The translations under genes and the position numbers were made by a program. Shown here piece after piece: positions 31,898-52,541 of a DNA stretch of 64,000 bases (positions are counted from its first letter, which is position 1; every line of letters begins with the position of its first letter). The notes beneath the pieces were generated by a model, which was not told where the DNA came from, did not search any database, and saw only the letters and a list, made by a program, of their open reading frames with translations. The DNA comes from Planctomycetota bacterium (GTDB lineage Bacteria > Planctomycetota > SZUA-567 > H5-PLA8): assembly GCA_038227875.1 (NCBI GenBank), contig JBBRPR010000015.1, forward strand, positions 32,001 through 96,000. Reading direction: 5' to 3'.

Positions 31898-32052
31898 ATC
31901 TCACGCAAAGCCGCAAAGAACGGCAACTGCAACGGCGGGAATGGGGATTCGGGAATCGGGAATCGTCGCACTCCGCATTCGGCGAATCCCGAGTCCCGAA
32001 TCCCGATTCCCGCAGTTGCAGTTCTTTGCGTCTTTGCGGCTTTGCGTGAGAT
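31898..32052. repeat. Nested-palindrome MITE-like element, copy 1
   Basis: 22-bp terminal inverted repeats ATCTCACGCAAAGCCGCAAAGA / TCTTTGCGGCTTTGCGTGAGAT enclosing inverted GGGA(A/T)TC heptamers. Confidence 0.85.
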
Positions 32053-47267: not shown

Positions 47268-47723
47268 ATGTTGTCGAAGAAAACGCAGTACGCGCTAAGA
47301 GCGATGATCTCTCTGGCGCATGAACAGCCAGGCCAACCGATCATGATCGCGGCGCTGGCGGAGAAGGAACAGATTCCCAAGAAGTTTTTGGAGCTGATCC
47401 TGCTCGACCTGAAGAGTATCGGGGTGGTTCAAAGTAAGAAGGGCAAGCAGGGCGGGTACTACCTAAGTCGAAAGCCTGCTGAGATTAAGCTCGGCCATAT
47501 CATGCGGGGAATCGAAGGACCGCTGGCGCTGTTGCCCTGCGTCAGTTTGACGGCATACGAACGCTGTGAAGGGTGCAAGGACGAACGGACCTGCGGATTG
47601 AGGTTGGTCATGAAAGACGTGCGAGACCAGACCGCAAAGATCTTGGACAACACCAGCTTGGCGGACGTGATGGATCGAGTCGAAGCAGAGAAGTCAAAGC
47701 CGGACATGATGTTCCACATCTAA
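47268..47723 (+). CDS. Rrf2 family transcriptional regulator with four Cys
   Basis: MLSKKTQYALRA, IPKKFLELIL, SKKGKQGGYYL and PCVSLTAYERCEGCKDERTC. Confidence 0.95.
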   Translation: MLSKKTQYALRAMISLAHEQPGQPIMIAALAEKEQIPKKFLELILLDLKSIGVVQSKKGKQGGYYLSRKPAEIKLGHIMRGIEGPLALLPCVSLTAYERCEGCKDERTCGLRLVMKDVRDQTAKILDNTSLADVMDRVEAEKSKPDMMFHI

Positions 47724-47780
47724 TTTTTTTAACACATAAGACGACTAAAACTATAGGCATAATAGTTAAGGATGAGACCC

Positions 47781-47969: not shown

Positions 47970-48043
47970 AAACGTGTTTTCCCCGGGGACCAATTGGTCC
48001 CCAGGTTAAACAGCGCTGCCTCCCTTATTAGAGGCAGCTTGGA

Positions 48044-48109
48044 GCTGACTGCGATGACAGAAGCATTTAACGAATGGACTCAAGTAAGCCGACCCGTGCG
48101 CGGAGGTTT
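48044..48109 (+). ncRNA. Two tandem candidate cis-regulatory RNA hairpins with a GA/A internal loop
   Basis: GCT-GA-CTG-cgatga-CAG-A-AGC (48044-48064) and AAGCC-GA-CC-cgtgcgc-GG-A-GGTTT (48086-48109). Confidence 0.5.
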
Positions 48110-48131
48110 GCGAACAGAGGAACGCAAACGT

Positions 48132-48551
48132 ATGAGCCAGTCATCTGAAATCGTACGCGTGTTTGGAGCGCGTGTAAATCCGGCGGTCATGGTTGTGGAA
48201 GCGGACACCGACACTCCGCATTCCCTGACGCAGACCTTGAAGGCGCGCGGCTTCCGCGTGGCGCTGGCGCAATCGGTGCGCGAAGCCGAAGAGATGCTCC
48301 ACGATCTGCGCGACCTGCACCTGCCGGTGGACGGGTTGCTGGCCGACTACCGGCTGAGCGACGGATTCGGCTGCCGGATTCTGCGCCGCTTCCAGGACGA
48401 ATTTCCGAATCTGCCGGCCGCGGTGATGGTCGACGGTGAAGACGTCAGCATCGAATTGTGGGCGCGCTCGCGCAACATTCTGCTGCTGCGAAAACCGCTG
48501 GCACTGCCGGCGTTGAGTCCCTGGCTGGAGCAACTACCCGTTCCGGCCTGA
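48132..48551 (+). CDS. Single-domain response regulator receiver-like protein
   Basis: VMVVEAD, LLADYRLSDGFG and LRKPL. Confidence 0.82.
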   Translation: MSQSSEIVRVFGARVNPAVMVVEADTDTPHSLTQTLKARGFRVALAQSVREAEEMLHDLRDLHLPVDGLLADYRLSDGFGCRILRRFQDEFPNLPAAVMVDGEDVSIELWARSRNILLLRKPLALPALSPWLEQLPVPA

Positions 48552-48560
48552 TGCAAAAAC

Positions 48561-48583
48561 GCCGACCGCCAATGCACGGAGGC
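48561..48583 (+). ncRNA. Candidate GA/A internal-loop hairpin, copy 3
   Basis: GCC-GA-CCG-ccaatgca-CGG-A-GGC. Confidence 0.5.
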
Positions 48584-48646
48584 TCAAAACAAATTTTCCG
48601 AAGGCCACCAGACTGCTGGGCTTTCGCAGGGAGAGGGGAAACCGAC

Positions 48647-49627
48647 GTGGATGTAAGACGGACGTTAATGGCGCCAATCGTGTTGGCGCTCATCGCAAGC
48701 GCAACAACCGCATTTAGTCAGGAGGGCTTGGAAACACCGGAGGCAGGCCATCGAGCGATCGCGTTGACGCCGAGCGTCTCCGGCGCATCGTTGTTCCCGC
48801 TGAAGAATCCGGGCATCGTGACGCTGGGCACACTTTCGATTCAGAACCGCATCGACTTTGCCATCAGCGCGAGTTCGACGTCGAATGGCAATCTTGCCTA
48901 CTCGTGGAATTGGGGCGACGGCACCCCCAATGGCACGGGCCCTTTTCCAAATCACACGTACATCGTCGCCGGAATCTACAACGTCACAGTGACGACGACC
49001 GAGACAATTAAAGGCGCCGTGGCCAACACTCGCACCGACACGATTGTGACCACGGTGACCGACGCAGTGAAGGCCAACAAGCTTCAGACCAATGAGAACT
49101 GGGCGACGGCCAGCGGCAACGACTCGTTGCGCTTTCAGGGCACGCTTCACATTCCATCCGGGGCGAAACTTGCCGGACAGGTCGTGCAAATCAGCCTGGG
49201 AAATCTGAATCTGCCATTCAACCCTGCCAGCCTGGGCACCAACGACGGCGTAGTGTTCACCTTTACCCTCAACGACAAGGGTATCGCGACGTTCACCACA
49301 AACGCCAATGCCATCTACGATCCCACCACCGGTTCCAGCCCAACGACTGGCACCAGCGCGTTGAGTCAGGCCAGCGGCAAGGGCCAGTTCAAGCTCGCCT
49401 ACCGCGCTCGCGCCGGCGGTACGGCATTCGTTGACGCGCCGTTCCTGCTGACGCTCAAGGGCGGCACGTTTGCGAAGGCGCTGGCCAACGAAGGCGTCAC
49501 CAACGTCGACGCCAGCCGCGAAAACGTGCGCATCACGGCACGTGTCCTGGCTTTCAACATCCTGTACCAGTCCGGCATCAATTCTCTGTTCTCCTCCACG
49601 AAGGGTGGAAAGGGGAAGACGCGATGA
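48647..49627 (+). CDS. Secreted PKD plus conserved C-terminal domain protein with no catalytic domain
   Basis: GTG start behind GAGAGGGG gives signal peptide MDVRRTLMAPIVLALIASATTAFS; PKD motif YSWNWGDG..HTY..AGIYNVTVT. Confidence 0.82.
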   Translation: MDVRRTLMAPIVLALIASATTAFSQEGLETPEAGHRAIALTPSVSGASLFPLKNPGIVTLGTLSIQNRIDFAISASSTSNGNLAYSWNWGDGTPNGTGPFPNHTYIVAGIYNVTVTTTETIKGAVANTRTDTIVTTVTDAVKANKLQTNENWATASGNDSLRFQGTLHIPSGAKLAGQVVQISLGNLNLPFNPASLGTNDGVVFTFTLNDKGIATFTTNANAIYDPTTGSSPTTGTSALSQASGKGQFKLAYRARAGGTAFVDAPFLLTLKGGTFAKALANEGVTNVDASRENVRITARVLAFNILYQSGINSLFSSTKGGKGKTR

Positions 49628-49713
49628 CCAAATACATGCAGCGTTTTCACCCGCGCGCGGAATTGTTCCGCGTGTCTCCGCCGACGACAAAATTCCAATT
49701 CCTGGAGGGGAAG

Positions 49714-51304
49714 ATGAATTCACGACTGAAAGTTAATGCCTTGAGATTCCTGACTGCCATGCTGTTCGTGGCGACGATTGGCTCCGCCGTCCGCGCCGCC
49801 GATGGTGCGGCCGCGGACTTCGAATCGCTGAAAAAGGAGATCGAGGAGCTCAAGAAAGACAACGCCGACATCAAGAAAGCCAACTCCGATCTCGCTGCGA
49901 AAATTGCGCCGACGAAATCCAGCTCTGCCGAGAAGGCGCTCGATACCAAGTACGGTCCGAATGCCTCAGTGATCACGAAGACCGGCAAGCTGCGTATCGG
50001 CGGACTGATTCAGGTCTGGTACTACAATGCTCAGAAGGACAACAACGGGCTCTTCCAGGACGCGGCGGGCAATGGTGTTTTCGATACCAACGAAGCGTCC
50101 GACAACAGCAGTTTCCGCATCCGCCGCACAGAAATGCGGTTTACGATGGACCTGACGGACAACATCACGTCGGTGGTGATGATCGACCCGGCGCGTGAAG
50201 CGCAGAGTTTTCCCGGCGTGCCGGACAATCAGTTTACGCAGAGTATTTTCAAGCGCACCGTCAACGCCAATCTGGCCAACGTTCAGAGCGGCGCGGGCAG
50301 CGCTCCACGCTTGCTTCAAGACGCGTACACCAACTTCCACAATTTTGTGCCGCACCATGATTTTCAGATCGGACAGTTCAAGCCGTTCATCGGCGAAGAA
50401 GGCATTCGCGCGAGCGCCGAACTTGATTTCGCGGAACGTTCGATGGTGGGCCAGCTGGCCGACAACCGCGACCTGGGCGCGGTCGCACACGGCGAATGGT
50501 GGCACGCCGATGGCAAGGGCGGCGGGCAGGTACAGTATTGGATTGGACTCTTCGATGGCGCGGGAAATCTGTATCAGTCCGGCGGCCAGGCGCAAAATCG
50601 AGCCGACGACAACGATCAGAAAGACTTTAACTATCGCTTCCTTGTTCGCCCATTCTGGAAACGCGACGCGTGCGATCAGTGGTGGGGCAGTTCTGGAACT
50701 GGGCGTCTCCGGCGAATTCGGCAAACACGGCGAAGCCGGCGGTCCGGATCCGGTCGACGCACCCGTCAATGGTCTCAACCGTCGCCGCACGTGGGCCAGC
50801 CGCCAGGATGCGTGGGGTTATTACGCGCCAGCCGGCGCGGTCAGCGGGCTGTGGTTCCGCGGTGAGTGGGAATGGCAGAAGGACCGCAACGCTCCGTCAT
50901 CGGTGATCGATCTGCTCGGCCAGGCTAACGCGGGCGATGGCACGCTGCAGACGAATGGGAAACCGTTCGCGTCGCAGGGCTTCTACGTGTCGACGGGCTA
51001 CAAGCTTTCACAGAGCAAACTGTTCTCGTGCGAATGCCCGGCCTGGTACAAGAATCTGGAATTCCTCTTCCGCTACGAGCAGTACCAGAACGTGGAAATC
51101 GCAGACCCGGCGAATCCCAGCCGCACGAATGTCTTCGAAACCAAGCTCTACACGGGCGGCATCAATTACTACATCGAGGGCAACACAAAGATTCAGTTGA
51201 ACTACAGCTCGATCCGCAATCCCGATGGTGGTTCGAGCGCGCCGTACACGTTTCACAATCCGCGCAACAATTTGTTCCTCGTGAACTTTCAGGTGGCTTT
51301 CTAA
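49714..51304 (+). pseudogene. OprO/OprP-like outer-membrane porin with a one-base frameshift
   Basis: Signal peptide, coiled coil, FRIRR, DAY, GQFKPF, LDFAERS and RDLG in one frame; LELGVSG...YEQY...NFQVAF (terminal Phe) in the next. Extra base near 50691-50692. Confidence 0.8.
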
Positions 51305-51362
51305 GCCTCGACCGCCGGGATGGCTGATTCATCCGTGGCCTAGTTAAACCAAGGAGTGTCCC

Positions 51363-52370
51363 ATGAAATCCCTGTCTTTGTTTCTCGCTACGCTGGCCCT
51401 CGTCGCGCTCACGCCTGTTCTGACGCGCGCTGCGGAGGTCACGCTGCTCAACGTTTCTTACGATCCGACCCGCGAGTTGTATCAGGATTACAACGCGGCT
51501 TTTGGCGCGTACTGGAAGAAAAAGACTGGCGACACGGTTGCCGTCAAGCAGTCGCACGGTGGCTCGGCCAAACAGGCGCGGTCGGTGATCGACGGCTTGG
51601 AAGCCGATGTCGTCACGCTGGGTTTGGCGTACGACATTGATGTCATCGCCGAAAAAGCGCAGTTGCTGCCGGTCGACTGGCAGAAGCGCAATCCCAACAA
51701 CAGTTCGCCGTACACCTCGACCATCGTGTTCCTGGTGCGCAAAGGCAATCCCAAGCAGATCAAGGATTGGGATGACCTGGTCAAGCCGGGGATTGAAGTG
51801 ATCACGCCGAATCCGAAGACGTCCGGCGGCGCGCGTTGGAACTATCTCGCCGCGTGGGGCTTCGCAGTCAAAAAGCAGGGCGCAGATGATGCGAAGGCGA
51901 AGGATTTTGTCACCGCGCTCTATAAAAACGTGCCGGTGCTCGACTCCGGCGCGCGCGGTTCGACGACGACGTTCACCGAACGCGGCATCGGCGACGTGCT
52001 GATCGCGTGGGAGAACGAGGCGTATCTGGCGCTGAAGGAACTGGGCAAGGACAAGGTTGAGATCGTCATCCCCAGCATCAGTATTCTCGCCGAACCTCCG
52101 GTGAGCGTGGTCGACAAGATCGCTCAGAAGAAGGGCACCGAAGCGGTCGCCAAGGCCTATGTCGAATACCTCTATAGTGAAGAAGGCCAGGAGATCGCCG
52201 CGCGCAATTTCTATCGTCCGCGCAACGAAGGCATCGCCTCGAAGCATGCCGATCAGTTCGCGAAACTGACGTTGTTCACGATCGACGATCTCTTCGGCGG
52301 TTGGCAGAAAGCGCAGAAGACGCACTTCGCCGATGGTGGACTGTTCGACCAGATCTATCAGCCAAAATAG
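51363..52370 (+). CDS. sbp: Sulfate ABC transporter substrate-binding protein
   Basis: [29 protein letters not shown] and WENEA. Confidence 0.97.
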
Positions 52371-52511
52371 GAGCAAAAGGACCGCGGAGGTTTCTCGGTT
52401 TTGAGCCTCGAGTTTTGACTGCGCAAGCAAAACGCGAAGCTCAAGATACTCCTCGCCTCCGCGGCCCTGCCCGTCTTAAGTGCGATGTTTTTCGTGGCAT
52501 AAAAAGATCCA

Positions 52512-52532
52512 TCAGACCGCACCCGCGGATGA
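52512..52532 (+). ncRNA. Candidate GA/A internal-loop hairpin, copy 4, just upstream of the cysT RBS
   Basis: TCA-GA-CCGC-accc-GCGG-A-TGA. Confidence 0.5.
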
Positions 52533-52541
52533 GGCAAGGAC

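Follow-up and report, generated by a model that had tools for sequence, protein, structure and literature searches.

The 64,000-nucleotide (nt) stretch of DNA analysed here (hereafter the window; positions 32,001 to 96,000 of contig JBBRPR010000015.1, assembly GCA_038227875.1, from a Planctomycetota bacterium) carries an operon in which Pfam confirms the gene order Rrf2-yezD-receiver-PKD-porin-Sbp-CysT-CysW-CysA. The product of the second gene belongs to the DUF2292 family, also referred to as YezD or OscA. OscA is known only as a small protein of unknown function, whose gene shares a transcript with sbp and whose induction under chromate stress or sulfur starvation has been described (PMC2996968); in Pseudomonas, oscA-sbp forms a defined transcription unit. 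The spacers of this operon hold four copies of a short hairpin in which an outer and an inner stem are separated by an asymmetric internal loop, where two unpaired bases on the 5' side (GA) face only one on the 3' side (A; hereafter GA/A loop). A first-pass annotation of the sequence had drawn attention to these hairpins as candidate sites for a small RNA-binding regulator, plausibly YezD. All four are present on the + (sense) strand where it had placed them, as are a palindrome (47985-48002) and another hairpin (48015-48038) that it had noted downstream of yezD. Copies 1 and 2 do lie in tandem just after this gene, 75-142 nt past its stop codon, and ViennaRNA includes each of the four copies in the minimum-free-energy fold of its intergenic region.

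The form of the hairpin is frequent in this genome. When it is defined loosely, as an outer stem of at least 3 base pairs (bp), GA, an inner stem of at least 3 bp opening with C-G, a loop of 3-9 nt and then an A, 1400 matches are found in the 9.3-Mb genome (59.6% G+C), while the window alone shows six on the + strand and five on the - strand. With a crude gene call, the rate per strand-nucleotide is 6.3e-5 in intergenic DNA versus 7.0e-5 (sense) and 8.5e-5 (antisense) in coding DNA. The genome-wide count, which the first-pass annotation had itself named as a check on its proposal, therefore speaks against it as far as the loose pattern is concerned, because this pattern is not enriched between genes, and the case must rest on comparative evidence.

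Three genomes of the same family (G010, G012 and G004) contain yezD-porin-sbp-cysTWA operons with related hairpins in their spacers, including one before the porin gene in G010, of which G012 and G004 have a CA variant. A scan of genome contigs with the YezD protein yielded 47 loci from Nitrospira, Verrucomicrobiota, Pseudomonas, Methylobacter, Acidobacteriota, Gemmatimonadota, Chlorobium and others, among which a yezD-(porin)-sbp-cysTWA arrangement is common. A strict scanner located a hairpin just 3' of yezD in nearly all of them, with a near-constant core and an outer stem that varies in sequence yet remains paired. The pairing was also evaluated in 46 yezD loci with a core pattern based on sequence only, in which pairing was not demanded. 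This pattern has 50 sense-strand matches near the 3' end of yezD (from -60 to +350 nt of the stop codon) versus 163 in the remaining ~1 Mb of strand space, and the first, second and third positions of the outer stem are paired in fractions of 0.74, 0.84 and 0.78 of the near matches versus 0.44, 0.41 and 0.25 of those elsewhere. Among 30 seed hairpins, picked by a scanner that demands pairing, eight of the nine pairs change on both sides, and none of 500 shuffles reaches the observed values.

A covariance model, designated R1, was built from these 30 seed hairpins, which are located downstream of yezD in other phyla, with no sequence from the window. Its consensus consists of a variable, co-varying outer stem, the GA, a 4-bp inner stem (mostly CCGG/CCGG or CCAG/CUGG), a tetraloop that often reads ACNA, and the A. 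The unpaired G10 and A11 on the 5' side and A24 on the 3' side are invariant in the 30 seeds. A C-G pair opens the inner stem in 69 of 69 hairpins and is the second outer pair in 68 of 69, and a pyrimidine-purine (Y-R) pair (C-G, U-A or U-G) stands beside the loop in 66 of 69. The hairpin loops themselves vary (ACCA, ACAA, ACGA, AUGA, AUUU, GCAA). A YezD scan of metagenomes provided 80 further loci, none of them used to build R1, where the model has 77 hits at E <=0.1, 76 of which are on the yezD strand. In this set, 77 loci extend for at least 150 nt beyond yezD, and 52 of these show an R1 hit between -45 and +400 nt of the end of the yezD match. Moreover, seven of the nine pairs change on both sides, and the third outer pair is GC in 27 cases, GU in 18, AU in 17, CG in three and UA in one. 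The first-pass annotation had proposed from the window copies that the stems change while pairing and the internal loop are kept, and this has been borne out across the family, together with the flanking C-G pairs; covariation and position likewise agree with its view of one sense-strand RNA family linked to DUF2292 across phyla. An Infernal-type search with Rfam 15, the database comparison that it had also called for, gave no family match: only two tRNAs were returned for the window, the operon region at E <=10 had just three chance rows of microRNA or small nucleolar RNA families, and in 16 related loci nothing appeared at the gathering score or at E <=1. The hairpin family is real and uncatalogued.

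When R1 was run without filters on both strands of the window (128 kb), 28 hits were obtained. The top three ranks correspond to copies 3, 4 and 2, and the E-values of the four copies range from 0.036 to 8.9 (Table 1). By our own arithmetic, the odds of the top three ranks falling by chance in the ~620 nt of sense-strand spacers, out of 128,000 strand-nucleotides, are ~1e-7. A search of the whole genome of the window with R1 gives nine matches (E 0.15-7.1), eight in genes of the crude call and one (contig C35) between genes; the window's own copies fall below this noise and are not listed.

Table 1. Genes, hairpins and related features of the yezD operon region in the window.
Feature	Position	Strand	Basis or description	R1 score, rank and matched interval
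Rrf2 regulator gene	47268-47723	+	Pfam
Rrf2-yezD spacer	47724-47771	+	AT-rich inverted repeat; sequence
yezD/oscA (DUF2292), 65 amino acids	47772-47969	+	Pfam PF10055, E 3.3e-16
Two strong hairpins directly after the yezD stop codon	47976-48038	+	Fold; region z -2.88
Copy 1	48044-48064	+	3+3 bp stem, GA/A loop, 6-nt hairpin loop; upstream member of tandem pair	7.5 bits, rank 27 of 28 (48038-48070)
Copy 2	48084-48111 (core in the first-pass annotation 48086-48109)	+	Start-codon-proximal, upstream of receiver gene	13.3 bits, rank 3 (48082-48113)
Alternative hairpin	48106-48129	+	3' arm of copy 2 (48106-48112) pairs with 48123-48129
Stand-alone receiver domain	48132-48551	+	Pfam
Copy 3	48561-48583	+	After receiver gene; upstream member of second tandem pair	15.0 bits, E 0.036, rank 1, top score of the window (48555-48589)
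Degenerate variant hairpin	48600-48625	+	Start-proximal, before PKD gene; outer stem of 7 bp, AC bulge on the 5' side, inner stem of 3 bp, 3' A missing
PKD-domain protein	48647-49627	+	Pfam
Porin O/P (phosphate-porin type)	49714-51304	+	Pfam
Sbp	51363-52370	+	Pfam
Copy 4	52512-52532	+	Overlaps cysT ribosome-binding region	13.7 bits, rank 2 (52506-52538)
CysT, CysW, CysA	from 52542	+	Pfam

The GA and the single A between two stems are found in all four window copies. Copies 1-3 also conserve the C-G opening of the inner stem, the second outer C-G and the loop-adjacent Y-R pair, and copy 4 has an atypical A-U pair beside the loop. A 4-bp inner stem with a tetraloop is exclusive to copy 4, while copies 1-3 show inner stems of 2-3 bp and loops of 6-8 nt; since other members of the family with 6-nt loops exist, the tetraloop is typical and not obligatory. 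Copies 3 and 4 are in the same operon, before the PKD-porin genes and cysT. Altogether, copies 2 and 3 can be regarded as good members of the family, copy 1 as a probable member and copy 4 as a possible one; copies 1 and 4 are thus weaker than the first-pass annotation had taken them to be.

Comparison with L107, a metagenome contig 95% identical to the window, reveals that copy 1 is unchanged and that copies 2 and 3 differ in their loops only, the orthologue of copy 3 reaching 19.0 bits. Copy 1 lies 42 nt upstream of copy 2, comparable to the start-to-start spacing of 43-53 nt in other tandem pairs, as seen by eye with no systematic count. The model end of copy 2 lies 18 nt from the ATG at 48132, within the mode of 15-23 nt observed in the family (see below). 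The register originally given for copy 2 agrees with the family form provided that the inner stem is reduced to 2 bp, and ViennaRNA favours instead a GAC/A loop with a 3-bp inner stem. Moreover, the 3' arm of this copy can take part in an alternative hairpin (48106-48129) that exposes the Shine-Dalgarno sequence as part of its loop, stops 2 nt short of the ATG and is incompatible with the outer stem of copy 2. This 3' part folds alone with -8.5 kcal/mol, versus -12.1 kcal/mol for the whole copy 2 element with the motif formed; the two states are thus of similar energy, and the folding models suggest that they may constitute a bistable switch.

Copy 3 is located farther from the following gene, with 57 nt between its model end and the start codon, and 39 nt from it lies one of the two weaker variants mentioned in the first-pass annotation (48600-48625), which ends 21 nt before the GTG of the PKD gene (48647). 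This variant is a real hairpin, whose pairing is kept through two changes in L107 (G-U to G-C and C-G to U-G), and it lacks the 3' A and an R1 match. The other variant (51304-51325) has no R1 match and folds differently, and it is not supported as a member of the family. In the case of copy 4, the model end is only 3 nt from the ATG of cysT. A hairpin before cysT in G012 (L025 5466-5486) has the same 3+4 bp, tetraloop and GA/A design and the same geometry, and its stem letters differ.

The position of the element relative to yezD was analysed in the pooled set from both scans, which comprises 128 yezD loci and 149 R1 hits, yezD being the gene used to collect all of them. The sense strand between -45 and +400 nt from the end of the yezD match holds 126 of the 149 hits, and none is found inside yezD or within 400 nt upstream of it. 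Five of the 149 are on the opposite strand, and when L027 (where yezD is on the - strand) is excluded, 143 of 148 are on the yezD strand. At least one downstream hit is present in 94 of the 128 loci and two or more tandem copies in 32, yezD being directly 5' of the element in most loci. In some lineages, the first copy overlaps the last ~30 nt of the yezD frame (L053 7154-7186, L070 7118-7150, L061 7262-7294 and L066 7138-7170), so that a ribosome finishing yezD would unfold the hairpin.

Co-occurrence was also examined genome by genome in two families. In 40 genomes of a family with the working label Methylomonadaceae-like, R1 hits at E <=0.01 are present in 21 of the 24 YezD-positive genomes versus none of the 16 YezD-negative ones, and many of these hits are on other contigs or kilobases away from yezD. 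In 41 genomes of a Nitrospiraceae-like family, hits at E <=0.001 appear in all 14 YezD-positive genomes versus three of the 27 YezD-negative ones; such figures are not independent, as kin share genes, and are given as counts and not as probabilities. In 13 of the 14 positives, the hit is 90-250 nt downstream of yezD on the same strand, and in the remaining one (G071) yezD is at the end of a contig. The three hits in YezD-negative genomes are inside open reading frames on the hit strand, of 618, 170 and 189 amino acids. The association with DUF2292 that had been anticipated thus holds at the level of genomes, including copies far from yezD.

Twenty-two of the distal hits in the Methylomonadaceae-like family were fetched, of which four are coding noise (two in Tn3 transposase genes) and 18 are intergenic. 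The match in Tn3-family transposase genes (L188, L197) is a coding look-alike and calls for caution in genome-wide counts. Distal copies precede cysT (after a LysR-family gene), cysK (after a sulfite-reductase-like gene), a DUF3034 gene with a Cys/Met pyridoxal-phosphate enzyme (after an Rrf2 gene), and ssu-like genes for an FMN (flavin mononucleotide) reductase, an SsuA-like binding protein and a luciferase-like monooxygenase. They also repeatedly precede cysK-cysE-SrpI-type encapsulin-cysteine desulfurase operons, which in Methylomonadaceae-like genomes are found behind a hairpin-terminator leader (L189, L190, L193, L194, L196, L198, L199, L201, L202 and L205). Encapsulin expression would there be under the RNA element. 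Operons of this kind are reportedly induced by sulfur starvation, and we know of no RNA-level control described for them. In several Verrucomicrobiota, yezD and the hairpins precede genes for an AstE/AspA-like protein, for two or three products without any Pfam match and for an outer-membrane protein of the ShlB/POTRA type (L067 1255-6218; L052 7210-10199; L050 1918-2745; L029 10351-14162), which may form an uncharacterised sulfur-scavenging module.

Two expression platforms are associated with the element. An intrinsic terminator is fused to 15 of the 18 intergenic distal sites mentioned above. Its stem starts at model column 26, inside the 3' outer arm of the motif, and is directly followed by 7-9 U. 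When the fused element is folded as a whole, the terminator is predicted to form and the motif is reduced to its inner hairpin, pointing to termination as the default state; locking of the outer stem would remove the basal pairs of the terminator next to the U-tract. At terminator-free sites, the distance between model end and start codon is 15-23 nt for 34 of 59 independent hits versus 8% of random positions treated by the same procedure, and a second mode of 55-71 nt corresponds to the upstream member of tandem pairs. Antitermination and translational control, the two read-outs that had been suggested at the outset, therefore both find a counterpart in the family, the former in the terminator-fused copies of one family and the latter in the fixed distance from the start codon elsewhere, including copy 2. 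No terminator-like site was found in the spacers of the window operon, which makes antitermination unlikely in the window itself; going by its sequence, this would be the translational, terminator-free form. Pairing of the 3' arm with the ribosome-binding region, considered as a universal feature, was rejected, because it was seen in part of the lineages only.

According to these data, we lean, though not by much, towards the interpretation that the window hairpins represent diverged copies of a cis-regulatory RNA element, as yet uncatalogued, that belongs to a sulfur-starvation regulon and most likely works with YezD as a protein-operated switch. YezD/OscA would bind the GA/A loop together with the inner hairpin and lock the weak outer stem, which would keep the 3' arm out of a downstream structure that competes for it. 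This competitor would be the intrinsic terminator in some lineages, resulting in antitermination. In the window and at most loci, where the element lies at a fixed distance from the start codon, the competitor or the bound protein would act on the ribosome-binding region, resulting in translational control. YezD is proposed as the operator because all loci were collected through its gene, because this gene is always 5' of the first copy and never preceded by a copy, and because the element was found only in genomes that encode it. The family, its covariation and position, its co-occurrence with yezD and the two platforms are direct results; the partnership with YezD is well motivated, and YezD binding, activation as the direction of control and any ligand are what we infer. 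A broader version is put forward tentatively, as a claim that falls a little short of an even chance: YezD/OscA might be the founder of a new family of very small RNA-binding regulators, which would bind a 25-nt GA/A hairpin, possibly gated by a sulfur metabolite, and switch on a sulfur-starvation regulon shared by Nitrospirota, Verrucomicrobiota, Gammaproteobacteria, Acidobacteriota, Gemmatimonadota and others. Such a regulon would comprise sulfate uptake, cysteine synthesis, sulfonate use and SrpI encapsulins, and would be operated through antitermination or freed ribosome-binding sites.

Several observations weigh against the interpretation in which YezD operates the switch. The AlphaFold model of YezD consists of a helix (13-29) and a beta-hairpin (35-53), with a predicted local distance difference test (pLDDT) score >90 in the core, and its comparison with solved folds gave no match (Foldseek against the PDB, best E 1.7; VIA-align, best Z 2.9); a search of the PDB with the sequence found nothing either. 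These searches revealed no relationship of the predicted fold or of the sequence to a known RNA-binding domain, and the conserved residues include several acidic ones. The window copies score 7.5-15 bits versus 25-41 bits for typical members. R1 finds no hit near yezD at E <=0.1 in 25 of the 77 metagenome loci with enough downstream sequence, and none in three of the 24 YezD-positive Methylomonadaceae-like genomes. Complementarity between the 3' arm and the ribosome-binding region occurs in some lineages only (z < -1 in 19 of 50 sites, z > +1 in four of 50, mean -0.64). In addition, R1 has 35 hits at E <=0.05 in 61 relatives of the window's genome, most of them in genomes that lack YezD; at 20-25 bits the model matches GC-rich coding DNA, and the 20 hits fetched of these 35 were all in frames open for at least 200 amino acids and are treated as coding noise. 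To this must be added the kinship behind the co-occurrence counts, since yezD and the element could simply be co-inherited members of one regulon.

Two other explanations are considered improbable, and to a similar degree. In one of them, the single or tandem hairpin would be a protein-free riboswitch that senses a small sulfur-related metabolite or ion, yezD being merely the commonest neighbour in the regulon. A near-invariant core with two interchangeable expression platforms would fit such a device, as would the tandem copies in 32 of the 128 loci, which recall cooperative tandem riboswitches, and the fold of YezD gives no pointer to RNA binding. However, the element measures only ~25 nt with three unpaired bases in the internal loop, and its hairpin loop is variable. 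It was not found in any of the 16 YezD-negative Methylomonadaceae-like genomes, although these presumably assimilate sulfur, and in the 27 YezD-negative genomes of the other family the hits are only inside open reading frames. The fact that it never precedes yezD (0/149) would also be odd for a riboswitch in control of the operon. Alternatively, the hairpin could be the operator for another co-inherited trans-acting factor, either an RNA-binding protein or a small RNA, and YezD could have a separate role in sulfur uptake. The association is indeed purely genomic, yezD is not the only recurrent gene of these loci, where Rrf2 or LysR regulators and others are seen repeatedly too, and the uninformative fold of YezD leaves room for such a factor. 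On the other hand, yezD is the gene with which all 128 loci were collected and is directly 5' of the element in most of them, whereas many loci have no Rrf2 match, and matches to the receiver gene were confined to the window and G012.

It is quite unlikely that the hairpins are constitutive mRNA structures with no sensor, such as processing sites, 5' stabilisers left after cleavage or ribosome standby sites. They are intercistronic, they stand alongside other strong hairpins of the window (47976-48038 and 52381-52466, the latter with z -4.66), and their 3' arm often contains GGAGG or GGAAG, all of which such structures would account for; but the unpaired GA/A and its flanking pairs are conserved across phyla, the fusion with terminators in 5' leaders makes termination the default, and the element co-occurs with yezD (21/24 vs 0/16 in the Methylomonadaceae-like genomes). 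Even less credit, and very little in all, is given to a DNA operator bound by a transcription factor, either Rrf2 or a LysR protein of the CysB-like kind, or to chance resemblance in the case of the window copies alone. The inner stem is a DNA palindrome, and the loose pattern is common in this GC-rich genome, with its 1400 matches and the lack of intergenic enrichment. A DNA operator was nevertheless rejected on the strong strand bias (143/148 on the yezD strand) and on the asymmetry of the internal loop (2 nt vs 1 nt), and in the outer stem it is the pairing and not the sequence that is kept, while the length of the hairpin loop varies. As for chance, it would have to place the top three R1 ranks in ~620 nt of spacers out of 128,000 strand-nucleotides. 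Other candidates were discarded as well. A sigma-54 promoter reading of CTGGAGG...GC was rejected by eye on account of its inconsistent spacing between relatives. A kink-turn, which is defined by a 3-nt bulge followed by tandem sheared G-A/A-G pairs, is not compatible with one unpaired purine (A) on the 3' strand, which makes tandem G-A pairs impossible. The guanidine-II (mini-ykkC) motif is defined by two hairpins whose ACGR loops are paired together; in the present family, loop sequences vary, and Rfam gave no hit at E <=1.

The proposed switch can be compared with several known systems. YezD, with ~60 amino acids, has no sequence or fold match to HutP, which is a 148-amino-acid hexamer, and the window has no terminator. 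The arrangement resembles nonetheless that of hutP and the hut terminator of Bacillus subtilis, (PMC2425495): the regulator gene is located beside the promoter, the stop codon of this gene is followed by the RNA target and then by the first structural gene, and binding, which involves two tandem regions, stops the terminator from forming. HutP reads single-stranded XAG repeats, in contrast to the structured hairpin with a GA/A internal loop found here. In the BglG/SacY-RAT (ribonucleic antiterminator) and ANTAR systems, a small hairpin that is transcribed ahead of an intrinsic terminator has a few of its 3' nucleotides in common with the terminator base and is stabilised by the protein, and the 15 terminator-fused copies suggest the same layout. 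Targets of ANTAR proteins are dual hexaloop hairpins, whereas the present element has tetraloops and an internal loop; moreover, no gene for a CAT or ANTAR domain accompanies it, and the Rfam models gave no match. The coat-protein operators of MS2 and PP7 are short hairpins with an unpaired 5' purine and a small A-containing loop at the ribosome-binding region, and they are read by a small beta-sheet protein, resulting in translational control. The likeness is one of design only, with no homology, and the operon and regulon context differs. The guanidine-II motif shares with the element two very small tandem hairpins with co-varying stems upstream of a start codon, although here the conserved bases are in the internal loop and the neighbouring genes are of a different kind.

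Sulfur, sulfate, cysteine and YezD were looked up as terms in a review of RNA-binding antiterminators from 2025 (PMC12591593), and none is mentioned. In the open full texts on DUF2292, yezD or oscA and sulfur, no description of an RNA element or of RNA binding was found; yezD appears there in transcriptome lists only, and the papers that name DUF2292 do not deal with RNA. What is added here is the start-codon-proximal form, the phyletic co-occurrence counts and the absence of the element upstream of yezD (0/149). DUF2292/YezD/OscA is a widespread small protein, and an RNA element that follows its gene, occurs in the same genomes and gates operons for sulfur assimilation would, if the proposal is true, give it a concrete and testable function. 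The few antiterminator and translational-operator systems listed for bacteria would then gain a further regulator-RNA pair, and a sulfur-starvation regulon spanning several phyla, with SrpI encapsulin operons among its members, would be defined.

Other features of the operon lie outside the RNA family. The spacer between the Rrf2 gene and yezD, with its AT-rich inverted repeat, probably contains the operon promoter and an operator for the CymR-like Rrf2 regulator; stronger AT-rich palindromes occupy the equivalent place in relatives (L025 1740-1800; L027 reverse complement 1650-1710), and that of G012 is very strong. The two strong hairpins directly after the yezD stop codon are not members of the family either. 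They have no U-tract and received no terminator-like call, and in L107 their divergence exceeds that of the remaining spacer; a single compensatory change was noted there by eye.

Regarding the genes, those for the receiver and the secreted PKD-domain protein are inserted between yezD and the porin gene; of the three relatives compared, G012 alone gave a match to the receiver. A second PKD-porin pair is encoded on contig C81 of the window's genome, with 73-86% protein identity. In the window, the porin O/P gene is distributed over two frames that overlap (49714-50865 and 50195-51304), with an apparent shift at ~50690 as located by eye, while it is a single frame in the orthologues of G012, G004 and G010 and in the paralogue on C81; the split may reflect either a pseudogene or an assembly error. 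Finally, a long near-perfect hairpin (52381-52466) is found between sbp and cysT, in a spacer whose fold reaches -69.9 kcal/mol (z -4.66). BLAST of the genome returned no second copy, which rules out a repeated element of the REP (repetitive extragenic palindromic) type, and this hairpin may be an intercistronic stabiliser or a processing site that sets the sbp:cysTWA ratio.

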